NCBI GenBank assembly: GCA_963826115.1
Contig: CAWGVS010000006.1
Location: forward strand, 800,001-864,000
Direction: 5' to 3'
Length of the DNA: 64,000 bases
DNA from: an uncultured Candidatus Rokubacteria bacterium
GTDB lineage: Bacteria > Methylomirabilota > Methylomirabilia > Rokubacteriales > DASRDR01
Both the position numbers and the translations under genes were made by a program. Below the pieces are notes generated by a model. It searched no databases. It saw nothing but the letters and a program-made list of their open reading frames with translations, and was not told the origin of the DNA. Numbering within the stretch: the stretch's first letter is position 1; every line of letters starts with the position of its first letter. This document shows positions 33,108 to 54,608 of the stretch, piece by piece.

Positions 33108-33113
33108 TATAAT
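33108..33113 (+). promoter_or_regulatory. Candidate sigma70 -10 box for the RRE operon
   Basis: Perfect TATAAT in a very GC-rich background, 33 nt before ATG 33147. No clear -35 element. Confidence 0.45.
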
Positions 33114-33146
33114 TCCCGCACATTCACGATCTGGGAGATCCGCCCG

Positions 33147-33602
33147 ATGCTTCCGGCTGACGTCTTTCGCGCCAACACCCCTCACGTGGTTCACGAGATC
33201 ATCGACGGCGAGGCGATCCTCGTGAACATGCAGACCGGCCGGTACTACAGCGCGAGCGAGATCGGCGCCGTCGTCTGGGGCCTGGTCGAGGCGGGCGCGC
33301 CGGTGAGCGCGATCGTGGACCGCGTGGCGGCCCGGTACCGGGGCACGCGCGGGGAGATCGCGGCGGGGCTCGAGAGCTTCCTCGCGGAGCTCGAGCGTGA
33401 GGGTCTGATCGTGCCGCACGAGGGCCCCGTCGCCGTCCGTGATGGCGCCGGCGACGGGCGCGAGATCTCGCCGGCCGGGGCGCCGTTCGTTCCGCCCGCG
33501 CTCCGCGCGTACACGGACATGGAAGATCTGCTGCTCCTCGATCCCATCCACGACGTGGACGAGACCGGCTGGCCCAACCGCGCCAAGGACCGCACCGACT
33601 GA
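33147..33602 (+). CDS. PqqD-family RiPP recognition element with fused C-terminal leader/core-like peptide
   Basis: PqqD-like fold in VVHEIIDGEAILVNMQTGRYYS..IGAVVWGLV...FLAELEREGLI, then a linker and FVPPALRAYTDMEDLLLLDPIHDVDETGWP. Confidence 0.85.
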   Translation: MLPADVFRANTPHVVHEIIDGEAILVNMQTGRYYSASEIGAVVWGLVEAGAPVSAIVDRVAARYRGTRGEIAAGLESFLAELEREGLIVPHEGPVAVRDGAGDGREISPAGAPFVPPALRAYTDMEDLLLLDPIHDVDETGWPNRAKDRTD

Positions 33603-33628
33603 CGGCGCCGCGCGCCGCCGTCCCCGCC

Positions 33629-34693
33629 GTGACGTCCGAAGACGGGATGCGCCCGGCGCCGCTGGCCTTCTTCGACGCGACGCGCCGCGCGTTCCTCGAC
33701 GCCGAGCGGGCCGCGGGCGGCGCGACCCACCGCTTCGTCGATGTCGCGGGCCAGACCGTCCGGCTGAGCTTCGCGGGCCCCGCGCTGATCTCGCGCCTCC
33801 TGCCGGCCCTGTCGCACGCCGAGGCGCCGCAGATCGCCACCCCGGCCCTCACGGTGTGCGCGTGGGACGGCGCCTCCACCGGGGTCGCGCTGCCCCGTCT
33901 CTCCTGGGAGGGCGCGTCCCTGTCCCGGCGTGGCGAGGTGCAGGGGTTCAACGATCGCCGGATCCGGATCGCCTTCGACCGGGCCTCGGACCTCCTGAGC
34001 TGCTTCGATGCCGACCGTCGCCTCGCGCTGTTCTGCACGCCGTCGGCCGACTCCGTCCCGATGCACGAGACGGCCACGCCGCTCACGGCGATACTCTCCT
34101 GGTGGCTGCGCTCGCGCGGCCTCGAGTTCGTCCACGCCGGCGCGGTCTCGTGGGCGGGGCGCGCTGCCCTGCTCACCGGCGACAGCGGAGCGGGCAAGAC
34201 GACCAGCGCCCTCGCGTGTCTCGCGTCGTCGCTGGGCTATCTGGGCGACGACACCTGCGCGGTCGAGGCCGGGCGCGCGCCCCGCGTGTTCGGCCTCTAC
34301 AACACCGCCAAGCTCACCCCGGACTGCGTCGAGCGGCTGCCACACCTGCGCGAGGCCGTGAGCAACCCGGGCCGGCTCGATCGGGAGAAGGCGGTGGTGT
34401 TCCTCGGCGAGGGTCAGCGCGCGCGGCTCGAGCGGAGCTGCCCGGTCGAGGCCATCGTGCTGCCGCGGGTCACCGCCCGTGTCACGCCGGTTCTGAGGCC
34501 CGCGTCGCCCTCGGCCGCCGCCCGGGCGCTCGGCCTGGGGAGCGCCCTCCGGTTCGCGGGGGTGGACGAGGACGGTCTCCGCAACCTCGTGCGGCTCTGC
34601 CACACGGTGCCGTGCTACGAGCTCCAGCTGGGCTCGGATCTCGCGCGGGTCCCCGAGCTGATCCGGCGCCTGCTGGCGCGGGAGGCGCCGTGA
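33629..34693 (+). CDS. HPr-kinase-like P-loop serine/threonine kinase
   Basis: VHAGAV, LLTGDSGAGKTT (Walker A), YLGDD: the His / P-loop / DD layout of HPrK-like kinases. Confidence 0.8.
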   Translation: MTSEDGMRPAPLAFFDATRRAFLDAERAAGGATHRFVDVAGQTVRLSFAGPALISRLLPALSHAEAPQIATPALTVCAWDGASTGVALPRLSWEGASLSRRGEVQGFNDRRIRIAFDRASDLLSCFDADRRLALFCTPSADSVPMHETATPLTAILSWWLRSRGLEFVHAGAVSWAGRAALLTGDSGAGKTTSALACLASSLGYLGDDTCAVEAGRAPRVFGLYNTAKLTPDCVERLPHLREAVSNPGRLDREKAVVFLGEGQRARLERSCPVEAIVLPRVTARVTPVLRPASPSAAARALGLGSALRFAGVDEDGLRNLVRLCHTVPCYELQLGSDLARVPELIRRLLAREAP

Positions 34694-35895
34694 GGATCGC
34701 GATCCTCACGCCCTACTCGCCGTATCCGCCGAACTCCGGCGGCCGGATCCGCATGTGGGAGCAGATCCGGTATCTCGCGCCGCGCCACCAGGTCACGCTG
34801 GTGTCCTTCTACGAGGAAGAGGAGGAGGACGACGCCCGGCGCGCCCGGCTCGAGGAGCACTGCCGGCGGGTCTTCCTGGTGAAGCGCCCGCGCCGCCCCG
34901 CCCACGACGACCTGGCGCGGCTCAACGGGGTCGCCGACCTCTTCCGCTGGCACACGACGCCGGAGATGGCGGCGGCGCTGAAGCGCTGCCGGAGCGAGTC
35001 GTTCGACGTGACGATGATCCACCACGTCTTCATGGCGCAGTACCGGGAGGCGCTCTCCGGGCCCGTCGTGCTCCAGGAGCACAACATCGAGTCGAACATC
35101 TTCGGCCAGCTGGCGCGCCTCGACGTGAACGGGGGGGACGAGGCGGCGCGCGGGCGCCTGCGGACGTTCCGCCGCTCGCGCTGGATGCTGATGCGGCAGT
35201 ACGAGGACCGCGCCTGGCCGGGCTTCCCGCTCCGCTTCGTGGTGAGCGAGGAGGACAAGCGCGAGCTGGACCGTCGGTGCCCGACCGGGCGCACGGTGGT
35301 TTCCGAGAACGGGGTGAACACGCGCGAGATCCGGCTCCAGCCCCTGTCGGCCGCCCGCCGCGTGCTGTTCATGGGGTCGCTCGACTTCTATCCGAACATC
35401 GACGCGCTGATGCACTTCCGCGACGCGGTCCTGCCCCGCCTGTGGCGGAAGGATCCGGACGTGTCGGTCGTCGTGGCGGGGAGGAACCCCGACGAGGCGG
35501 TCCGGGCGCTCGCGATGGACCCGAGGATCACGGTCGTCGCCGATCCGGCCGACATCGCCCCGCTGGCCCGCGAGTGCGGTGTGACCGTGGTACCGCAGCG
35601 CGTGGGCGGGGGGACGCGCATGCGGATCCTCCACGCCATGGCCCTCGGGCTCCCGGTGGTCTCGACGAGCCGCGGGTGCGAGGGGCTCGCCGTCACCGAC
35701 GGCCAGGACATCCTGGTCCGCGACGACCCCGACGCCATGGTCGACGCCGTGCTGGAGCTTCTCGGGAGCCCGGCCCTGGCGGCGCGCCTTCACGCGGCGG
35801 GGCGCGCCCTCGTGGAGGCGCGCTACGACTGGCCCCGGGTGATGGCGAGCATGGAGGAGGAGCTCCTCGCCGTGGCGGGCGCGCGGGTGGGCTGA
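34690..35895 (+). CDS. Glycosyltransferase family 4
   Basis: PYPPNSGGRIR, EHNIES, FMGSLDFYPNID, GGGTRMRILHAMALGLPVVST..GCEG. GTGA overlap with the kinase. Confidence 0.9.
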   Translation: MRIAILTPYSPYPPNSGGRIRMWEQIRYLAPRHQVTLVSFYEEEEEDDARRARLEEHCRRVFLVKRPRRPAHDDLARLNGVADLFRWHTTPEMAAALKRCRSESFDVTMIHHVFMAQYREALSGPVVLQEHNIESNIFGQLARLDVNGGDEAARGRLRTFRRSRWMLMRQYEDRAWPGFPLRFVVSEEDKRELDRRCPTGRTVVSENGVNTREIRLQPLSAARRVLFMGSLDFYPNIDALMHFRDAVLPRLWRKDPDVSVVVAGRNPDEAVRALAMDPRITVVADPADIAPLARECGVTVVPQRVGGGTRMRILHAMALGLPVVSTSRGCEGLAVTDGQDILVRDDPDAMVDAVLELLGSPALAARLHAAGRALVEARYDWPRVMASMEEELLAVAGARVG

Positions 35896-36641
35896 TGGAA
35901 CCGGTCAGGCCGCGGAGCGCCGGCGGGAGCCCGCTGGTCAGCGTCGTCATTCCCGCCTACAACGGGGCCGAGTTCCTGGGGAAGGCGGTGGACAGCGTCC
36001 TCCGGCAGGCGTGGGAGCCGATCGAGATCCTTGTGATCGACGACGGCTCGACCGACGACACGGCCGCCATCGCGCGGAGCTTCGGCGACGCCGTGCGATA
36101 CGAAGCTCAGCCGCGCCGGGGATGTCCGGCGGCCGGGCGGAACCGGGGCATCCGGCTGTCGCGCGGGTCGCTCGTCGCCTTCCTGGATCAGGACGACCTC
36201 TGGCCGCCCGGCGCGCTCCGATGCCGGATCTCGGCCTTTGGCGCCAGCCCGCCGCCGGATGTCGTGATCGGTCGCACGCAGATCCTGCATCACGACCGGG
36301 AGCCGGGCGGCCGAGGCCCGGGGGCGCTCGGCCTCGTGCTGCCGAACCACATGGTGTCGGCGGCCCTGTTCACGCGGGAGGCGCTCGCCGCCGTCGGGCC
36401 GTTCGACGAGACGCTGCGCTACTTCGGCGACGACCTCGACTGGTTCATCCGGGCCCGGGACCTCGGCATCCGGACGCTGGCCCTCGACGTGGTCACGCTG
36501 CACTGGCGGCGGCACGACCGGAACGCGAGCGACCGCGGCATCCGCGACCACGCGGCGGGGCGGGACCACGCGCTGACCGAGGTCGTGAAGCGGACGCTGG
36601 ACCGGCGCCGTCGGGCCGCGTCGCCGGGCGGCGATGGCTGA
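35895..36641 (+). CDS. Glycosyltransferase family 2
   Basis: VSVVIPAYN, DDGSTD, RNRG, FLDQDDLW, FDE, DLDW. TGATG overlap. Confidence 0.9.
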   Translation: MEPVRPRSAGGSPLVSVVIPAYNGAEFLGKAVDSVLRQAWEPIEILVIDDGSTDDTAAIARSFGDAVRYEAQPRRGCPAAGRNRGIRLSRGSLVAFLDQDDLWPPGALRCRISAFGASPPPDVVIGRTQILHHDREPGGRGPGALGLVLPNHMVSAALFTREALAAVGPFDETLRYFGDDLDWFIRARDLGIRTLALDVVTLHWRRHDRNASDRGIRDHAAGRDHALTEVVKRTLDRRRRAASPGGDG

Positions 36642-37806
36642 GCCCGCGCCGGCGCCGATCGTGGCCGCGGACGGCCCTGCGGCCCGCGACGGCCGGGGCG
36701 TGCTCGTGATCGACACGCGGTATCCGACGCCGGACCGTGACGCCGCGTCGCTCCGGATGATGAACGTGCTGGCGCTCCTCCGGGAGGTCGCCGGGCCCGT
36801 GACCTTCGCGGCCGACGACGCCGGCGCGCATCGCTCCTCCCGGGCGCTGCTTCGGGCCGCCGGGATCCGCGTGGTGGATGACGTCTCCGTGGAGGCGCAC
36901 CTCCGCGCGCGCGGGCGCGACTACCGGATCGTCGTGCTGAGCCGCGTCGACACGGCCACGAAGTATTTGCCCCTCGTACGCCAGCACGCCCCGGACGCCC
37001 GGCTCGTCTTCGACACGACGGATCTCGCGTCGGTGCGGGGTCTCCGCGGCGCGAGGGTGACCGGCAATCAGAACCTGCTCCGCCAGGCCCTCGTGGCCCG
37101 ACGGGAGGAGCGGGCCGCGGCCTCGGCCGCCGACTGCACCCTGGTCGTCAGCGCGGAGGAGCAGGCGACGCTGATGGCCGACTGCCCGGGCGCCCGGGTT
37201 CACGTGCTGTCGGTTGTCCACGCGCTGCCCGAGTACCGTCCCTCGCGCGCCGGGCGTGAGGGCCTCGTGTTCGTGGGCGCCTTCCCGCACCATCCGAACG
37301 CGGACGCGATGGAGTTCTTTCTCCGCGAGGTGCATCCGAGGCTCCGCGAGAGGCTCCCTGGAGTTCAGACCCTCATCGTCGGGACGGAGCCGCCCGAGTG
37401 GCTTCGGCAGCGAGCCGGCCCGGACATCGTCGTCGCGGGACACGTGCCGGACATCGGGACGGCTCTCGGGCGGCGACGGGTGTCGATCGCGCCGCTGCGC
37501 TACGGCGCGGGCGTCAAGGGCAAGGTCATCCTCAGCATGAGTCACGGGGTCCCCGTCGTCGGGTCCACGATCTCGGCCGAGGGGATCGGGGCGCGGGACG
37601 GGGAGGAGATGCTGATCGCCGATGCGCCGGACGAGCTCGTGGCCAAGATCGCCCTGGCGTACGAGGACGAGGCGGTGTGGCACCGCCTCTCCGCCAACGG
37701 CCGACGCCTGGTCGACCGGGAGTTCTCGCTCGACGCCGGGCGCCGGAGCGTCCGCGAGCTCCTCGCGCTCCTGGGCGTGGCGACCAACTCGGTTCCCGTG
37801 GAATGA
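36634..37806 (+). CDS. Glycosyltransferase family 4
   Basis: PTPDRDAAS.R, FDTTD, FVGAFPHHPNADA, APLRYGAGVKGK, PVV..ISAEG. Confidence 0.88.
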   Translation: MAEPAPAPIVAADGPAARDGRGVLVIDTRYPTPDRDAASLRMMNVLALLREVAGPVTFAADDAGAHRSSRALLRAAGIRVVDDVSVEAHLRARGRDYRIVVLSRVDTATKYLPLVRQHAPDARLVFDTTDLASVRGLRGARVTGNQNLLRQALVARREERAAASAADCTLVVSAEEQATLMADCPGARVHVLSVVHALPEYRPSRAGREGLVFVGAFPHHPNADAMEFFLREVHPRLRERLPGVQTLIVGTEPPEWLRQRAGPDIVVAGHVPDIGTALGRRRVSIAPLRYGAGVKGKVILSMSHGVPVVGSTISAEGIGARDGEEMLIADAPDELVAKIALAYEDEAVWHRLSANGRRLVDREFSLDAGRRSVRELLALLGVATNSVPVE

Positions 37807-38510
37807 CGGGGGCCGGGGTGGGGACTGCCGGGCTGGTCAGCGTCGTCGTGCCGGTCTTCGACGGGGCCCGGTTCCTGGCGGAGGCGGTGGAGAGCGTCCG
37901 CGCGCAAACGTACGCGCCGGTCGAGATCCTCGTGGTCGACGACGGCTCGACGGACGGGACGGCCGAAGTGGCCGGGCGCCTTCCGGGGATTCGCTATGCC
38001 TGGCAGGAGCACGCGGGGATCGGGGCGGCACGGAACCGGGGCGTCGCGATGGCGCGTGGCGAGGTGCTCGCCTTCCTGGACGCGGACGACGTGTGGCTGC
38101 CGGACAAGCTCACGCGTCAGATGGCGATCCTGCGCGAGGCCCCGGACGTGGACATCGTGTTCGGTCATGTCGAGGAGTTCGTCGACCGCGCGCCGGGCGT
38201 CGAGGAGGAGGGAAGGCACGGGCCTGCCGCGAGGCCCGTCCGCGGAATCATTCCGTCGGCGATGGCGGTGCGGCGCGAGTCCTTCGACCGGGTCGGGCCC
38301 TTCGAGACCCACTGGCGGGTCGGCGAGTTCGCCAGCTGGCTGCTCCGCGCCGGCGAGGCGGGACTGGCGATCCGGGTCCCGCCGGACGTCGTCGCGCGGC
38401 GGCGCGTCCACGGGGAGAACCACGGCATCCGGCAGCGCGAGGCGCTGCAGGACTACGCGCGGATCCTCAAGCAGTCCCTCGACCGGCGACGGGCGGGCGG
38501 AGCCGGCTAG
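37803..38510 (+). CDS. Glycosyltransferase family 2
   Basis: VSVVVPVFD, DDGSTD, ARNRG, FLDADDVWLPDKL. ATGA overlap. Confidence 0.9.
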   Translation: MTGAGVGTAGLVSVVVPVFDGARFLAEAVESVRAQTYAPVEILVVDDGSTDGTAEVAGRLPGIRYAWQEHAGIGAARNRGVAMARGEVLAFLDADDVWLPDKLTRQMAILREAPDVDIVFGHVEEFVDRAPGVEEEGRHGPAARPVRGIIPSAMAVRRESFDRVGPFETHWRVGEFASWLLRAGEAGLAIRVPPDVVARRRVHGENHGIRQREALQDYARILKQSLDRRRAGGAG

Positions 38511-38512
38511 AC

Positions 38513-39256
38513 ATGCCGACGGTGGCCGTGATCGTGCCGACCTACCGGCGGGAGCGCTTCCTGAACCTGGCGGTCGCGTCGCTCCTGGCCCAGACCTTCG
38601 CCGACTGGGAAGCGCTGATCGTCGACGGGACCCCCGAGGGGTCGACCCTCGAGTCCTCGGACCCGCGGCTCCGGTACTTCCGGGAGAGCGAGCACGGCGT
38701 GTCCGGCCTGGCCCAGGCCCGGAACTTCGGCATCGCGCAGAGCGACGCCAAGTACGTCGCCTACCTCGACGACGACGAGTGTTACTACCCGACGAAGCTC
38801 GAGGTCATGGTCGATGTCCTCGAGCGGGAGGCGGCCGGGGTCGAGTTCGCCTACCACGACGTCACCGTCGCGGCCGTGGAGTGGGTCGACGGGAGGCTCG
38901 GCCGCATCGGCGAGCCGCGCCGGCACCGGCATCCGGAGGGCGACCCGAACGAGGCGATCCGGACGACGTCCTTCATCGCCGGCCTCCAGGTCGTCCACAC
39001 CCGGAGCGTGTTCGACAAGGCGGGGGGATTCCGCGAGGAGCGGCTGCGCGGCATCTTCCAGGGGCGGTACCGGAGCCGGCTCGTTCGCTACGACGAGGAC
39101 GCGGACCTGTTCCGGCGCATCGCCCGACACACGCGGCTCCGCCGCGTGCCTATCGAGCTGGGAGAGTACCGGGTTCACGGCTCGAACGCGAACGGCTGGG
39201 GGATCGACTACGAAGAGGTCCTCCGCGCGCGGCAGCTCACTAGGGACGAGTACTGA
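38513..39256 (+). CDS. Glycosyltransferase family 2
   Basis: VAVIVPTYRR, ARNFGI, YLDDD, EDADL, YRVH. Confidence 0.85.
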   Translation: MPTVAVIVPTYRRERFLNLAVASLLAQTFADWEALIVDGTPEGSTLESSDPRLRYFRESEHGVSGLAQARNFGIAQSDAKYVAYLDDDECYYPTKLEVMVDVLEREAAGVEFAYHDVTVAAVEWVDGRLGRIGEPRRHRHPEGDPNEAIRTTSFIAGLQVVHTRSVFDKAGGFREERLRGIFQGRYRSRLVRYDEDADLFRRIARHTRLRRVPIELGEYRVHGSNANGWGIDYEEVLRARQLTRDEY

Positions 39257-39277
39257 GGCGCGGCCCGCCGCGGCGGG

Positions 39278-40186
39278 TCAATCGGTCCGGAGCCAGCCGG
39301 ACAGGTCGCGTCCGATGAGGTCCTGGAGCTTCAGGATGTCCTCGCGGTAGACGCCGACCAGGCGCGCTCGCGCGCCGGGGGGAAGCCGCGCCGAACCCTC
39401 GTTCGCGCTCAGCAGGGACCGCACGACTCGCCGGCGCATCGAGAGCGGGACGAGCGGCCGCACGATCGACTTGAGCGCGTTCGGCCGGCTCAGAAACCGC
39501 TGGAGCCCGGCGCTCCGAGGCGGCGCCGAGGGATTGAAGCGCCGGGCCGTATCGACGACGACGCGGCTGTCGACGCCGAGGAACTCGAAGACGTCGCGGA
39601 CGACTCCCGGCGTGTTGTCCGCCAGATCCTCGTGAAGGAAGAGGCGGATCCGGCTCCGGTCGAAGACACGGAAGTAGCGCTCGAGCTGGCGATGGTAGAA
39701 CCCAGCGGCGACGTACCGCCAGAGCCAGTCCCAGCGCTCGCGGGCCCGCTTCTCCTCCTCGGCCAGAGCCCGGGTGAAGTCGGGGATCGGCTCCCGGCCC
39801 GACCGGATCAGGTGCCGGAAGCTCGCGTAGGCGCGCTCACTGGGATCGCGGAGGATCGCGACGAGCCGGGCGCCGGGGATAGCGTCGCGGATGCGTCGCG
39901 GGGCGTCCTCGCTCAGGAGGTACCAGGCCGACGCCTCGCCGACCGCGCGGTGCTCCGGGCCCGCGCCGGCGAACAGCGCCCGGTACGCGTCGGGGTCCGC
40001 GGTCATGCCGGCCGTGGCGGCGCCGTCGCCCGGCCCGCGGAAGTCGACGCGCTCGCCCTCGAGGGCGAAGAAAGCCGGCTCCTTCACGGGGCTCATGAAG
40101 ATCTGCGGGTGGCCGCGCAGGTACTCGTAGAGCGAGGTGGTGCCGCTGCTCATGGCGCCGATGACGAGGAAGTTCGGCAGCGTCAT
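39278..40186 (-). CDS. Sulfotransferase family protein
   Basis: LPNFLVIGAMSSGTTSL..HPQI..KEP, GEASAWY, ILRDPSERAYAS. Confidence 0.88.
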   Translation of the reverse strand: MTLPNFLVIGAMSSGTTSLYEYLRGHPQIFMSPVKEPAFFALEGERVDFRGPGDGAATAGMTADPDAYRALFAGAGPEHRAVGEASAWYLLSEDAPRRIRDAIPGARLVAILRDPSERAYASFRHLIRSGREPIPDFTRALAEEEKRARERWDWLWRYVAAGFYHRQLERYFRVFDRSRIRLFLHEDLADNTPGVVRDVFEFLGVDSRVVVDTARRFNPSAPPRSAGLQRFLSRPNALKSIVRPLVPLSMRRRVVRSLLSANEGSARLPPGARARLVGVYREDILKLQDLIGRDLSGWLRTD

Positions 40187-40283: not shown

Positions 40284-41387
40284 TCAGCGGATGCTGAAGA
40301 GCGGCGTGAGCGCCTTCTCGTCCACCGTGATCCCGAGGCCGGGGCGCCGCGACACCTCCGCCCAGCCGTCCTTCGGCTCGGGCGTGCCCTCGGCGATGCG
40401 CTCGTTGACGAGCATGTTGATCAGCATGCCGTTCAGGAGCGACTTCGCGGGCGTGCTGGCGGCGAGGTGGGCCATCGCCGCGGTGACGATGTCACCGCCT
40501 CCCGAGTCCTCCATGGTCACCGAGAGGCCCCACTGACGGCAGACGTCGCGGGCGAGCCGGATCCGGCTGATGCCGCCGAAGCGCGACAGCTTGAGCATCG
40601 CGCAGTCCATCGCGCGCGCCGACTGGGCGGTGAACAGGGCGTCGAGGTCGGTCAGCGTCTCGTCGAGGATCATCGGCCGCGCGGTGCGGCGGCGAATCGC
40701 GAGACACTCCTCGAGGGTGCGGCACGGCTGCTCGAGGTAGATCGGCTCGTCCTCGAGCGCGGCGATGAACTGGGCGGCCTCGTGCTGCTTCCAGTAGGCG
40801 TTGGCGTCGCAGATCACCACCTCCTGGTCGCGCAGGACGTCGAGGCACGCGCGCGCGCGCTTGACGTCCTCCTGCCAGTGCCCGCTGCCCACCTTCACCT
40901 GGAAGCGGCGGAAGCCCTGCTTGAGGAGCGCCTCGGCGTGGGCGCGCATCTTCTCCGGCCGATCCACGCCCACGACGTTGTAGAGGGGGAACCGCGGCTG
41001 GACCGTTCCCCCGAGGAGATCGCTGATCGGGAGACCGGTCGCCTGACCCAGGATGTCCCAGCAGGCGATGTCGATCGGCGACTTGGCGTAGGCGTGGCCG
41101 TACAGGACGGAGTCCATTCGCGCGTAGACGTCCTCGACCTGCCGCGGGTCCGCACCGATCAGGGCCGGCCCCATGAGCTGGATGCCGGCCCGCGCGCCCT
41201 CGGCGAACGCCAGCATGTAGGTCGGGCTGAACGGGCACTCCTCGCCCCAGCCCACCAGCCCCGCGTCGGTCGTGATCTTGACCAGCGTGGCGTGCTCGGC
41301 GCTCACCGTGCGGCCGCCGGACAGCGTCAGCGTGCCGCCGGGGATGGTGTAGTCGAAGCCGAAGACATCGATGCGCGCGATCTTCAC
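40284..41387 (-). CDS. Enolase-superfamily (mandelate racemase/MLE) enzyme, hydroxyproline/proline-betaine epimerase-dehydratase-like
   Basis: GWGEECP, AKSPIDIACWD, FQVKVG, DAN, EQP, LDE, LKLSRFGG, MED, PGLG. Confidence 0.85.
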   Translation of the reverse strand: MKIARIDVFGFDYTIPGGTLTLSGGRTVSAEHATLVKITTDAGLVGWGEECPFSPTYMLAFAEGARAGIQLMGPALIGADPRQVEDVYARMDSVLYGHAYAKSPIDIACWDILGQATGLPISDLLGGTVQPRFPLYNVVGVDRPEKMRAHAEALLKQGFRRFQVKVGSGHWQEDVKRARACLDVLRDQEVVICDANAYWKQHEAAQFIAALEDEPIYLEQPCRTLEECLAIRRRTARPMILDETLTDLDALFTAQSARAMDCAMLKLSRFGGISRIRLARDVCRQWGLSVTMEDSGGGDIVTAAMAHLAASTPAKSLLNGMLINMLVNERIAEGTPEPKDGWAEVSRRPGLGITVDEKALTPLFSIR

Positions 41388-43322: not shown

Positions 43323-44453
43323 ATGAAGGACGCCCCGGCCTCCGGATCCCTCGCGGCTGCGGAAGCGGCGTCGCTCCGGTACGTGAGCGACGGCGTCCCC
43401 GGGATCGCGCGCGTCCGGACCAGGCGGGGGTTCCGCTATCGGGCGCCCGACGGGACGCCGGTCCGCGACCTCGCGGCGCGCCGCCGGATCCGGGCCCTCG
43501 CGATCCCCCCAGCGTGGACGGAGGTCTGGATCTGCCCCTCGGCCCAAGGGCACATCCAGGCGGTGGGCCGGGACGCCCGGGGGCGGAAGCAGTACCGCTA
43601 CCACCCGCGCTGGCGGGAAACGCGGGACGCGACCAAGTACGGTCGCCTCCTTCTGTTCGCCGAGCGGCTGCCGGCCATCCGGCGGCGGGTTGCCGCGGAC
43701 CTCGCCCGGCCCGGGCTGCCTCGCGAGAAGGTTCTGGCGACGGTGGTGCGTCTCCTCGAGACATCCCTGATTCGCGTCGGCAACGCCGAGTACACGACAG
43801 CGAACGGCTCGTACGGCCTCACGACCCTCAGGAACCGGCACGTCCGGGTCGCCGGGGCGACCCTCCGCTTCGAGTTCCGCGGCAAGGGGGGCAAGCCGCA
43901 CGTCGTGGACGTGGCCGATCGGCGCCTGGCTCGGATCGTCCGGCAGTGCCAGGAGCTGCCCGGGCACGAGCTCTTCCAGTACGTGGACGGTGACGGCCAG
44001 ACGCACACCATCGCGTCGGGCGACGTGAATGCCTACCTCCGCGAGATCGGGGGGGAGGAGTTCACCGCCAAGGACTTCCGCACGTGGGCGGGCACGGTCC
44101 TGGCCGCGCGCGCGCTCCGGGATGAGGGGGCGGTCCCTGCGCGGGCCGCGATGCGGAAGGTCGCGGAAGCCATCCGGGCGGTGGCGACGCGACTCGGCAA
44201 CACGGCGACAGTGTGTCGCCGGTGCTACGTCCACCCCGGCGTCATCGAGGCCTATCTCGGGGGGACGCTCGGCCGGCCCGCCCGGGGCGCGAACCCCCGT
44301 GGTCTCGACGTGGACGAGCGCGCCGTCCTTCCACTCTTGCGGGCCTGCGCGCGCGGGGAGGCCAGGAACGGGGTCGGAGCTTCTCGGGTCGCTCGTCCGG
44401 TGTCGACGTCCTTGGCGGCGACAGAGGCTGGTAGAGGACGTCCCGGCTCCTGA
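43323..44453 (+). CDS. DNA topoisomerase IB (bacterial/poxvirus type)
   Basis: IPPAWTEVWI, GRDARGRKQYRYH, IRVGN.EY, FRGKGGK, AKDFRTW, LGNT, CYVHP (catalytic Tyr). Confidence 0.92.
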   Translation: MKDAPASGSLAAAEAASLRYVSDGVPGIARVRTRRGFRYRAPDGTPVRDLAARRRIRALAIPPAWTEVWICPSAQGHIQAVGRDARGRKQYRYHPRWRETRDATKYGRLLLFAERLPAIRRRVAADLARPGLPREKVLATVVRLLETSLIRVGNAEYTTANGSYGLTTLRNRHVRVAGATLRFEFRGKGGKPHVVDVADRRLARIVRQCQELPGHELFQYVDGDGQTHTIASGDVNAYLREIGGEEFTAKDFRTWAGTVLAARALRDEGAVPARAAMRKVAEAIRAVATRLGNTATVCRRCYVHPGVIEAYLGGTLGRPARGANPRGLDVDERAVLPLLRACARGEARNGVGASRVARPVSTSLAATEAGRGRPGS

Positions 44454-53291: not shown

Positions 53292-54608
53292 ATGGGCCCG
53301 GCGAAGGCGGAGCGCGCGGTCCTCCAGGTGGCGGGCCGCGAGGTCACGATCACCAACCCGGGGAAGGTCTACTTCCCCGAGGCAGGGATCACCAAGCTCG
53401 ACGTCGCGCAGTACTACGTCGCCGTGGCCGACGGCGCCCTCCGTGGCGCGGGCGGCCGGCCGAACGTGCTGGTCCGCTACGCCGACGGCATCCACGGCGA
53501 GTTCTTCTACCAGAAGCGGGCGCCGCGCGAGCGCCCGGACTGGGTGGAGGGCGTCGAGCTCCGCTTCCCGTCCGGCGGCGTCGCCGAGGAGGTCGTGCCC
53601 CGCGACGCCGCCACGCTCGCCTGGATGGCGAACCTCGGCTGCCTCGAGCTTCACCCGCATCCGGTGCGCGCGGAGGACCTCGAGCATCCGGACGAGCTCC
53701 GGATCGACCTGGATCCGGTCCCGGGCGTCGAGTGGACACAGATCGTCGCCGTCGCGCGTGTCGCGCGCGAGGCGCTGGCCGACTTCGGCCTGGTGGGGTG
53801 GCCGAAGACGTCGGGCTCGCGCGGCATCCACGTCAACGTGCGGATCCACCCCCGCTGGGGTTTCGGGGAGGTGCGGCGCGCGGCGCTCGCGTTCGCGCGC
53901 GAGGTCGAGCGCCGGGCGCCGACGCTCGCCACCAGCAAGTGGTGGAAGGAGGAGCGCCACGGGGTCTTCCTCGACTACAACCAGAACGCGAAGGACCGCA
54001 CGGTCTGCAGCGCCTACTCGGTGCGCCCGAAGCCGGACGCGCGCGTCTCGGCCCCCGTGACGTGGGAGGAGCTCGAGGCGTGCGACCCGGGCGACTTCAC
54101 GCTCCGCACGATGCCGGCGCGGTTCGCCGCGATCGGGGACCGGCACGCCACGATCGACGACCACGCGCGCTCGCTCGAGGCGCTGCTGGAGCTCTCCACC
54201 GCGCACGAGCGGGACGGGCTTGGCGACGCGCCGTGGCCGCCCCACTACCGGAAGCAGCCGGGGGAGCCGGAGCGAGTCGCGCCGTCCAAGCGGAAGAGCG
54301 GCGCGAGCGCCGGCGGCCGCCGCGCGTCGACGAAGCCCCTCGTCGAGATCGGGCGCGCGGACCGGAAGGAGGACGCGCTCGCGGGGCTCGAGCGCTGGAA
54401 GGCGCGCCACCCGGAGGTCGTCACGCACCTCCAGCCCGCGGACGTCCTGGTCGACTCGATGCGCGGCCGGTCGACGACGTGGACCCGCATCCGCGTGAAT
54501 CTCGAGCACGTGCCCGAGGCGCTCCGGCCGGCGCAGGAGCCCCTCGATCCCGACGGAGGACCGTCGTGGGCGCGGGCGGCGGGCCGTCCGGATCCGCCCG
54601 AGCGCTGA
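53292..54608 (+). CDS. Stand-alone LigD-type primase-polymerase (Prim-PolC-like)
   Basis: TNPGKVYFP, RYADG, FFYQKR, DELRIDLDP, KTSGSRGIH, WWKEER, FLDYNQN, AYSVR. Confidence 0.9.
   Translation: MGPAKAERAVLQVAGREVTITNPGKVYFPEAGITKLDVAQYYVAVADGALRGAGGRPNVLVRYADGIHGEFFYQKRAPRERPDWVEGVELRFPSGGVAEEVVPRDAATLAWMANLGCLELHPHPVRAEDLEHPDELRIDLDPVPGVEWTQIVAVARVAREALADFGLVGWPKTSGSRGIHVNVRIHPRWGFGEVRRAALAFAREVERRAPTLATSKWWKEERHGVFLDYNQNAKDRTVCSAYSVRPKPDARVSAPVTWEELEACDPGDFTLRTMPARFAAIGDRHATIDDHARSLEALLELSTAHERDGLGDAPWPPHYRKQPGEPERVAPSKRKSGASAGGRRASTKPLVEIGRADRKEDALAGLERWKARHPEVVTHLQPADVLVDSMRGRSTTWTRIRVNLEHVPEALRPAQEPLDPDGGPSWARAAGRPDPPER

Follow-up and report, generated by a model that had tools for sequence, protein, structure and literature searches.

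What is a peptide-recognition domain doing at the head of an operon of glycosyltransferases? This question is raised by positions 33147-40186 of a 64,000-nucleotide stretch of contig CAWGVS010000006.1 from an uncultured Candidatus Rokubacteria bacterium (hereafter the window). There, a 151-residue protein containing a RiPP recognition element (RRE; RiPP, ribosomally made and post-translationally modified peptide) is encoded ahead of an HprK-like kinase and five glycosyltransferases (GTs), three of family GT2 and two of family GT4. RREs are a common handle of RiPP biosynthesis, and in the described cases that we found they bind a separately encoded peptide. Here, the RRE is followed in the same polypeptide by a tail bearing a leader-type motif, and an earlier note on this DNA, made from the letters themselves, had proposed that the tail is a precursor fused in cis to its own RRE. 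The architecture is widespread and conserved; it is apparently undescribed and is best filed as a variant of the kind formed by linear polyphosphorylated peptides (LPPs) and paeninodins. As for its function, we see an even chance that the tail is a built-in substrate, phosphorylated and glycosylated by the enzymes of the operon.

An RRE fused to a near-invariant tail

The earlier note had read the first ~90 residues as a PqqD-type RRE, and this reading is borne out. Pfam PqqD (PF05402) matches residues 22-88 with an E-value of 3.4e-13 (50.1 bits vs. a cut-off of 23.4). An AlphaFold2 (AF2) model of the whole protein, built from 120 sequences with a mean predicted local distance difference test score (pLDDT) of 81 and read for its confidence and strand assignment, shows three strands (residues 14-19, 22-27, and 32-36) and three helices (38-48, 53-63, and 68-84) at pLDDT 92-96, within a range of 79-96 over residues 1-90. 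The RRE is closest to the lasso B1 proteins. With Foldseek, the model matches the complexes of TbiB1 with its leader (5v1v/5v1u, TM(target) 0.89-0.93) and also 6jx3. Run against the sequences of the PDB, a profile of the RRE family finds TbiB1 (3.8e-17), PbaB1 (9x90_B, 2e-14), TfuB1 (4.1e-6), and LppB (9x8z_B, 2.1e-5). The top NCBIfam match is the lasso PqqD chaperone model (4.2e-12), the scores remaining below the cut-offs of the lasso B1 families (46 bits vs. 80 for NF033536 and 28.9 vs. 70 for NF033530). The label of the protein in the Protein Atlas is the generic “PqqD family protein” only.

The C-terminal portion of this protein, which begins at 33486 as previously noted, is better conserved than the RRE domain itself (alignments of 26 and 120 homologues). 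Its conservation was counted in 78 of 80 related loci, the remaining two having no match to the pattern used; these 80 are the best of at least 553 stretches confirmed in species-representative genomes of many phyla. The consensus FxxPxL..DM..LLLLDPIH[DE]V..GWP is nearly invariant. Within the leader-type motif, F114 is found in 75 of the 78 loci, P117 in all of them, and L119 in 76. Further on, D124, M125, L129, D132, P133, I134, and H135 are each present in 78/78 loci and V137 in 77/78, and the final G141, W142, and P143 are invariant in the alignment of 120 sequences. Position 122 is occupied by Y (69 loci), F (5), or H (4). At position 123, T (56 loci) or S (17) provides a hydroxyl in 73/78 cases, the other five residues being Q, D, A, K, or N. 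The GWP triplet is followed by 3-20 residues, with a Lys at GWP+3 in 52/78 loci and an unconserved C-terminal residue.

This tail is also widespread. Searching with the 151-residue protein at E<=1e-3 gave 389 proteins of ~150 residues. For the tail by itself, a profile run against 1.84 billion proteins returned 3153 cluster representatives (50% identity) at E<=1e-3, 1773 of them at E<=1e-10, and the motif is C-terminal in all of the best 150 matches. The invariant 30-residue tail is, at this number of clusters, a sharp signature for genome mining. According to record titles, the best 80 loci come from Chloroflexota, Acidobacteriota, Nitrospirota, Desulfobacterota, Cyanobacteria (including Oscillatoria sp. 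PCC 10802), Ignavibacteria, Gammaproteobacteria, Gemmatimonadales, Verrucomicrobia, Lentisphaerae, and others. The distribution is patchy, since 13 of 251 genomes of the window's own phylum and 7 of 14 of its own genus carry the RRE-tail gene. The recurrence of the tail and of its neighbors across phyla is far beyond chance.

How the tail is placed relative to the RRE can be approached from the AF2 model. Residues 111-120, containing FVPPAL, are predicted with a pLDDT of 91 and form short strands, residues 91-110 before them have values of 51-60, and over residues 121-150 the pLDDT falls from 70 to 56, so that the conserved segment does not appear fixed in the monomer. The model is consistent with FVPPAL docked in the leader groove of its own RRE. 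By analogy, such docking would be in line with the closest solved relatives of the RRE, which are known to bind [Y/W]xxPx[L/V] leaders. In TbiB1 and TfuB1 (5v1u, 5v1v, and 6jx3), which resemble residues 1-90 in fold and sequence and bind a peptide motif of the same type, the precursor is a separate molecule, bound in trans and passed to B2; here, in contrast, RRE and motif are joined in cis, and a B2 is absent.

The neighborhood of the fused gene in related genomes

The earlier note had pointed to the conservation of the tail and to its coupling with kinases and GTs as things to be checked across genomes. Besides the extreme conservation described above, the coupling is strong. Related loci were searched with the window proteins and with representatives of recurrent neighbors, and genes were counted within 10 kb downstream in the 50 loci having at least 8 kb on that side, and likewise upstream in 45 loci. 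An HprK-like kinase is found downstream in 45/50 loci and upstream in 0/45. The corresponding figures are 47/50 (three copies being the mode) and 3/45 for GT2 enzymes, 33/50 and 3/45 for an NTP_transf_5 nucleotidyltransferase, 18/50 and 1/45 for an MsbA-like ATP-binding cassette (ABC) exporter, 6/50 and 1/45 for an stp1-like GT4, and 3/50 and 0/45 for a sulfotransferase. Pfam confirmed the nucleotidyltransferase (PF14907) and the exporter (ABC_membrane and ABC_tran). The kinase gene lies 300 bp or less from the tail gene in 43 of the 66 kinase-bearing loci. Such linkage, rich downstream and poor upstream, indicates that the RRE-tail gene heads a conserved operon.

Lasso machinery is not part of it. 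As the earlier note had observed for the window, no such genes are seen: in the 33 proteins of its 21.6-54.6 kb region, Pfam detects no lasso cyclase, B2, or radical S-adenosylmethionine (SAM) enzyme. Downstream of the fused gene in the 50 related loci, there is no lasso cyclase (0/50) and no B2 (0/50, by tblastn with the genome's own B2, a search of limited sensitivity). Peptidase families were looked for with Pfam and found neither in the eight proteins of the locus nor in 48 proteins of eight related loci from different phyla, a scan that left aside small open reading frames (ORFs) and the other 72 loci.

The gene set of the window is itself unusual for this family, having two GT4s, a singleton GT2, and a sulfotransferase, and neither a nucleotidyltransferase nor an exporter. 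When 122 GT2s were clustered, three subgroups recurred, of 51 members (47 loci), 34 members (31 loci), and 35 members (30 loci). GT2 “b” of the window belongs to the 51-member subgroup and GT2 “a” to the 34-member one, and GT2 “c” is the singleton. The earlier note had treated the whole gene set as one system; the kinase and two GT2 subfamilies are indeed recurrent, whereas relatives seldom carry the GT4s, the third GT2, or the sulfotransferase. No locus carries all three GT2 types of the window (best-hit typing), and the idea of three shared orthologues was dropped. Similarly, four loci of the same phylum considered as orthologues of the exact gene order proved to be other paralogue types, with 36-46% identity. 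Membership of the sulfotransferase is uncertain, as its gene lies 97 nt downstream of an enolase-superfamily gene (40284-41387) on the same strand and may belong to that transcript. Another Sulfotransfer_3 gene occurs at one related locus (L033).

Natural fusions connect the same partners. In a search for longer proteins, one of 783 residues (P0275) was found to join three RRE(-tail) modules to a kinase, and one of 283 residues (P0274) contains two RRE-tail modules in tandem. At a further locus (L013:10494-12311), the kinase is fused to a GT2. In an AF2 model of P0275 made with alignment rows for the kinase only, the tail has a pLDDT of 22-27 and the kinase module one of 87-98. The search for shorter proteins gave four hits, all on contigs of ~1 kb: two N-terminal truncations that keep the end of the RRE, one 30-residue piece of the tail, and one protein whose start lies in the linker. 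The tail profile also retrieves ~26 proteins of less than 100 residues among its best 150 matches, some of them beginning with M at 46-52 residues. At one locus of the same genus (L114, G240:C1; 1454-1774 and 1498-1662, minus strand), RRE and tail are in two frames owing to a frameshift in the linker, which may reflect faulty assembly or a pseudogene. Short “standalone tail” proteins of metagenome catalogues may accordingly be artefacts, and we do not claim split RRE/tail forms.

The kinase, correctly recognized as HPrK-like in the earlier note, has no Pfam match, and its NCBIfam scores lie far under the curated cut-offs (HprK_rel_A, TIGR04352, 1.5e-8, 34.1 bits vs. 200; HprK_rel_B, TIGR04355, 1.4e-6, 27.7 bits vs. 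200; hpr-ser, TIGR00679, 0.0078, 15.5 bits vs. 240). A profile of 42 homologues compared with solved HPrK/P chains gives 8.8e-6 over the P-loop region and aligns with HPrK/P 1jb1 across the His, P-loop, and DD regions. H169, G184, G187, G189, K190, and D208 do not vary among these homologues, at least 90% of which also have S191 and D207. The enzyme thus shares with HPrK/P and HprK-related kinase A the His, the Walker-A motif GxxGxGKS, and the DD signature. Family TIGR04352 has reportedly been described with a PqqD-family neighbor; literature searches under these names gave no match. The catalytic-domain fold is also common to them: the modeled kinase module of P0275 matches HPrK/P with Z-scores of 13.4-13.8 (root-mean-square deviation 2.4-2.7, 129-132 aligned) and phosphoenolpyruvate carboxykinase with a Z-score of 16.3. 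An additional conserved N-terminal domain of ~160 residues sets the protein apart and is common only to tail-associated kinases. Two paralogues of the same genome align over the full length with 39-41% identity, and the kinase of the lasso cluster of this genome matches residues 157-246 only.

Binding of the kinase to the RRE-tail protein was examined by complex prediction. The score is 0.32 (runs at 0.10, 0.36, and 0.32) vs. 0.00 for the best of three controls, with at least 3% contact agreement between runs and a partner pLDDT of at least 68. Of 157 solved complexes, 116 attain the mark of the test, as do 2 of 215 mismatched pairs; scores of 0.60 or less comprise just 18 of the 157 solved complexes, yet both of the passing mismatches. 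Our own alignments were used, and these benchmark counts therefore hold only roughly. The prediction lends weak support to an interaction of the two proteins. Of the structural checks proposed in the earlier note, the one on FVPPAL gave a confident strand-forming segment and the one on kinase binding a weak signal.

The genome of the window contains eight PqqD matches and seven kinase matches, and four paralogous RRE-tail/kinase/GT2 cassettes including that of the window. The three others (L105 on contig C1, L106 at 797 kb of C12, and L108 at 368 kb of C12), one of which has two NTP_transf_5 genes, encode diverged tails that retain DP[IV]H..GWP. L108 has a duplicated RRE, the tail of the first copy being degenerate, and a DDE transposase gene alongside. 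A further locus (L109:7372-11605, C5 ~241.4-245.6 kb) encodes an untailed PqqD protein, a 292-residue HprK-like kinase scoring above the Pfam cut-off (Hpr_kinase_C, 1.6e-8, 34.7 bits vs. 33.3), and a 740-residue radical-SAM/NTP_transf_5 fusion. A polysaccharide deacetylase gene adjoins, and a 58-residue ORF upstream contains the leader-type motif YEPPRV; this locus may represent the fused system's LPP-like counterpart in split form. Outside the window cluster, the genome has 12 PF14907 matches. The two that lie at C9:33730-35603, where contig 9 ends, and at C12:649-2522, where contig 12 starts, have identical scores and spacing, and these contig ends are thus probably overlapping or duplicated in the assembly.

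The same genome also carries a canonical lasso set (L110:7324-12736), at ~110.3-115.7 kb of the window's contig (C6), composed of a 99-residue B1, a 111-residue B2, a 627-residue Asn-synthase-like cyclase, and a 300-residue HprK-like kinase. Three tandem, near-identical 75-residue ORFs with no Pfam match lie between the cyclase and kinase genes, and no lasso precursor was identified at this locus. Its B2 is the only PF13471 match of the genome (C6:115054-115380), ~718 kb from the RRE-tail locus. In Oscillatoria sp. PCC 10802, two PF13471 matches (L067:14-178, minus strand; G251:C3:4239200-4240170) occur ~10 kb upstream of the RRE-tail gene, and a lasso cluster may therefore adjoin the cassette, as reported for LPP clusters of Bacillota.

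A proposed built-in substrate and its alternatives

Precedents for the enzyme set are the LPPs that Popov et al. (Nat Commun 2026, PMC13381572) describe in Bacillota, and paeninodin-type clusters (PMC8498205). LPP precursors have the consensus YxxPxVLxHQxIxFETxxS, and [Y/W]xxPx[L/V] is the motif class bound by lasso and LPP RREs. Beyond this motif, the LPP leader makes no contact with the RRE and has been proposed to address the modifying enzymes. The kinase LppK adds several phosphates to the core peptide's Ser3, variants with Thr or Tyr at that site not being phosphorylated, and the NTP transferase was inactive in a heterologous host. LPP clusters often lie in glycosyltransferase-rich capsule loci, where paeninodin clusters are also found; both kinds, whose roles are unknown, are, according to the authors, restricted to Bacillota (PMC13381572). 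Paeninodin-type HprK homologues phosphorylate the C-terminal Ser of the precursor; in pseudomycoidin, the nucleotidyltransferase puts one or two hexoses on the phosphate, and some paeninodin-type clusters contain sulfotransferase genes (PMC8498205).

The present system resembles LPP clusters in its RRE of lasso-B1 lineage, its [Y/W]xxPx[L/V]-class motif, its HprK-like kinase, the lack of a macrolactam cyclase, and its setting among glycosyltransferase genes, and in relatives of the window cluster also in the PF14907 NTP transferase and the MsbA-like exporter. The peptide is, however, fused to the C-terminus of the RRE, whereas the LPP precursor is separately encoded. The aromatic residue of the motif is Phe in most loci here and Tyr or Trp in LPPs. 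The segment that follows differs and is far more conserved here, with an Asp where the LPP Ser would fall, and the few residues after it compare with a 45-residue core in LppA. An SpI-like (SipW-type) peptidase was not seen in the proteins scanned, the core genes here include two or three small GT2s, and many phyla are concerned (record titles) rather than Bacillota only. LppB is, moreover, merely the fourth-best solved relative of the RRE. With the paeninodin and pseudomycoidin clusters, the system shares a discrete B1-type RRE, an HprK-like kinase, a nucleotidyltransferase, a sulfotransferase in some cases, and an ABC exporter. It differs from them by the absence of cyclase and B2 near the window genes and in the 50 related loci, and by its unconserved C-terminal residue, the kinases there targeting a C-terminal Ser.

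The earlier note had considered the system as a candidate new one. This holds for the fusion, natural RRE-substrate fusions being undescribed in the full-text literature searched (the supplementary tables of PMC13381572 and PMC7470986, outside that search, might list such proteins); the system as such has a precedent in the LPP clusters. In the RRE-Finder study, lasso-type RRE hits without lasso machinery were regarded as false positives or possible new classes (PMC7470986).

On the built-in-substrate reading, the 151-residue protein would be a lasso-B1-type RRE carrying its own recognition peptide. Past the flexible linker, FVPPAL would dock in cis into the groove of the RRE, and the invariant DM..LLLLDPIH[DE]V..GWP segment would thereby be held out to the kinase, to the GT2s, and, where present, to the nucleotidyltransferase. 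The HprK-like kinase would phosphorylate the tail, most plausibly at Thr/Ser123, and the glycosyltransferases would build sugars on it, this task falling to the GT2s and, in most relatives, to NTP_transf_5, joined in the window version by the two GT4s and perhaps by the sulfotransferase. This would yield a phospho-glycosylated protein, or a peptide liberated from such a protein, which relatives bearing an ABC exporter probably export. Such logic would be that of an LPP or paeninodin-type cassette in which RRE and precursor form one chain and a dedicated leader peptidase is absent. In favor of this reading are the leader-binding habit of the closest solved RREs, the match of the enzyme set with LPP/paeninodin-like clusters (PMC13381572, PMC8498205), and also the linkage of the gene to kinase and GT2 genes, the frequent hydroxyl at position 123, the natural fusions, and the four paralogous cassettes. 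The part of the earlier proposal that concerns a cis-fused leader is strengthened by the lasso-B1-like RRE, the near-invariant FxxPxL, and the confidence with which FVPPAL is modeled; the part that concerns a modified residue is met by a tail in which no hydroxyl is invariant.

Several observations weigh on the other side. In the 78 loci, no Ser, Thr, or Tyr of the tail is invariant, and two paralogues of the same genome have Q or D at position 123. LppK is specific for Ser (PMC13381572), whereas most tails here have Thr. The near-invariance of the tail is unlike the variable cores of RiPPs and LPPs and fits a docking or regulatory element equally well. With no peptidase among the 8 window and 48 relative proteins, there is no visible release step, and an ABC exporter would hardly be able to move a folded 15-kDa protein. 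The kinase is missing in 5/50 loci, and the window cluster is without the NTP_transf_5 and exporter genes that relatives carry. Docking in the groove is deduced from pLDDT values and strand assignment, and the complex test for the kinase gave only a weak signal.

Some of these observations would be better accommodated if the tail were not modified at all. It is possible, if on the whole unlikely, that the protein is an adaptor or regulator whose RRE holds a pseudo-leader, and whose DPIH..GWP segment docks or switches a kinase/GT2 complex making a polysaccharide or glycolipid on an external carrier. Some other protein, a lipid, or a sugar would then be the substrate of the kinase. The earlier note had likewise named regulation of surface-polysaccharide synthesis as an alternative. 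Near-invariance across phyla is typical of an interaction motif that has to fit several conserved partners, and the missing invariant hydroxyl and the missing peptidase are in line with such a role. One relative (L045) has genes for a Wzm/Wzt-type ABC-2 exporter, of the sort that serves lipid-linked glycans; the GT4s are of the stp1-like type, which takes its name from exopolysaccharide systems; and LPP/paeninodin clusters are also found in capsule loci (PMC13381572). Since LppB is insoluble without its leader (PMC13381572), a leader in cis could simply stabilize the RRE. All characterized RREs of the clade, however, present a peptide for modification (PMC13381572, PMC7470986). The window cluster also speaks against this role: Pfam and NCBIfam reveal no priming phosphoglycosyltransferase, flippase/polymerase, or Wzm/Wzt among the eight locus proteins, and none of these has a predicted membrane span (top 19-residue Kyte-Doolittle mean of 1.74). 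The GTs would therefore need a soluble or externally supplied acceptor. In addition, the MsbA-like exporters and NTP_transf_5 enzymes of relatives match peptide-modifying clusters.

A different use of the tail is suggested by its most constant residues. The D132-P133 bond might be cut with the assistance of H135, which would release a C-terminal peptide or leave an activated Asp ester- or amide-linked to a GT-made glycan, the kinase possibly activating the Asp or the glycan. Self-cleaving motifs are GDPH in mucins and RGM, NPTH in FlhB/YscU, and DPHFII in the heavy chains of inter-alpha-inhibitor, where the Asp of DPHFII becomes esterified to a sulfated glycan. Asp-Pro-Ile-His is found in every one of the 78 loci, and in all four paralogues of the window's genome, while the hydroxyl site is not invariant, and a release step of this type would explain a missing peptidase alongside exporters. 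By our own count, D132 lies at the spacing from the motif aromatic of the phosphorylated Ser of the LPP consensus (motif from PMC13381572). As the argument is one of motif analogy, as the D-P-x-H spacing is unlike GDPH, and as the known targets of HprK-type kinases are Ser hydroxyls (PMC8498205; PMC13381572), we consider this chemistry decidedly improbable. Improbable too is the idea of a scaffold that primes itself, in which the RRE-tail protein would be the bacterial equivalent of a protein-primed glycan and a kinase-borne phosphate or Asp-Pro..His cleavage would be followed by a short GT2-made glycan, sulfated in some lineages and exported by the ABC transporter. The outcome would be a conserved phospho-glycopeptide or peptide-glycan conjugate produced across many phyla. 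There remains the lasso cluster of the genome, a cognate set elsewhere in the same genome having been envisaged in the earlier note. That the window's RRE is an orphan B1 serving this cluster, or a decaying remnant, is scarcely credible. The cluster is on the same contig and the top NCBIfam match of the RRE is a lasso model; nevertheless, at ~718 kb it has a B1 and a kinase of its own and does not need the window's RRE, which scores well below the cut-off of that lasso model. Cyclase and B2 are absent downstream in all 50 related loci, and 3/5 other cassette-bearing genomes, whose completeness is not established, have no B2 match. Intact codon bias and strong cross-phylum conservation argue against decay.

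If the built-in-substrate reading is true, a fusion preserved with hardly a changed letter in cyanobacteria, Acidobacteriota, and Nitrospirota alike would represent a new wiring of such pathways, and the kinase/nucleotidyltransferase chemistry of the LPP/paeninodin type would extend far past Bacillota. The conservation of the tail suggests one conserved product, nearer to a cofactor or a cell-envelope signal than to an antibiotic. Were the protein a self-priming scaffold, it would define a new and widespread class of ribosomally templated glycoconjugate, with recognition element, leader, and acceptor in one polypeptide. Oscillatoria sp. PCC 10802 is an available culture-collection strain with a full cassette (L067), made up of RRE-tail, kinase, two GT2s, ABC exporter, NTP_transf_5, and methyltransferase genes.

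Layout and expression of the locus

The G+C content of the window is 73%, and genes were for this reason called by third-position GC (GC3 frame analysis) together with ORF lists. Positions 33147-40186 comprise eight genes (Table 1), and the gene set, the coordinates, and the convergent sulfotransferase described in the earlier note agree with GC3, ORF lists, and Pfam. The kinase gene begins 26 nt downstream of the RRE-tail gene. From the kinase gene onward, in the order kinase-GT4-GT2-GT4-GT2-GT2, successive genes overlap by 4, 1, 8, and 4 nt, and a 2-nt gap separates the last two, as first reported. The overlapping operon genes leave no space for a separate precursor gene.

Table 1. Genes, protein regions, and candidate signals of the RRE-tail locus (positions in the window)
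Feature	Position	Strand	Length, support, or remark
PqqD/RRE protein with tail	33147-33602	+	151 aa
RRE, PqqD-type winged helix, residues 1-90	33147-33416	+	Pfam PqqD, AF2, and Foldseek
Variable low-complexity linker, residues 91-113	33417-33485	+	Unconserved in alignments of 26 and 120; AF2 pLDDT 51-60
FVPPAL, leader-type RRE-binding motif, residues 114-119	33486-33503	+	Conservation, AF2, motif class
Ultra-conserved segment RAYTDMEDLLLLDPIHDVDETGWP, residues 120-143	33504-33575	+	Conservation in 78 loci
Variable C-terminal end, 8 residues and stop codon	33576-33602	+	Alignment of 78 loci
HprK-like P-loop kinase with N-terminal domain	33629-34693	+	354 aa
GT4 glycosyltransferase, stp1-like	34690-35895	+	401 aa; Pfam Glyco_trans_1_4 2.2e-22; NCBIfam TIGR03087 2e-57, below cut-off
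GT2 glycosyltransferase “a”	35895-36641	+	Pfam Glycos_transf_2 2.3e-29
Second GT4 glycosyltransferase	36634-37806	+	Pfam Glyco_trans_1_4 1.7e-21; NCBIfam TIGR03087 1.9e-34, below cut-off
GT2 glycosyltransferase “b”	37803-38510	+	Pfam Glycos_transf_2 7.8e-33
GT2 glycosyltransferase “c”	38513-39256	+	Pfam Glycos_transf_2 3.5e-20
Convergent sulfotransferase	39278-40186	-	Pfam Sulfotransfer_3 1e-11
TATAAT hexamer, possible -10 element	33108-33113	+	34 nt before ATG; putative function
GGGAG, Shine-Dalgarno-like site	33133-33137	+	9 nt before ATG; read from sequence

The TATAAT upstream of the operon, already pointed out in the earlier note, is the sole copy on both strands of the 64-kb window, where 0.30 are expected; at least one copy arises in 24 of 100 shuffled sequences. 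It has no matching -35 hexamer, a two-hexamer promoter scan giving no site, and no promoter or terminator was found in the scan of the locus.

Some sequence runs contain pieces that match the operon. In runs labeled as soil metatranscriptomes, short contigs are ~98-99% identical to the kinase/GT4 junction, the first GT4, the first GT2, and the GT2/GT4 junction, and others, at ~95% identity, cover the GT2 “c”/sulfotransferase junction and the inside of the sulfotransferase gene. Together they span window positions 34547-39634 (runs X16, X17, and X20), and presence in an RNA library does not by itself show transcription. The figures of X16 and X17 are identical, possibly one data set filed twice, and X20 comes from another study. 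No listed piece of an RNA run falls on the RRE-tail gene (depth 0-0.69), and a DNA run (X1) has pieces matching the operon without differences. These data are a weak hint that close relatives of the operon are expressed.

The flanking genes are those of ordinary metabolism, namely an amidohydrolase, 2-oxoacid dehydrogenase subunits, the enzyme of the enolase superfamily, and a response regulator. Further downstream, genes for a type IB topoisomerase (43383-44453) and for a LigD primase-polymerase (53292-54608) appear unrelated to the operon.

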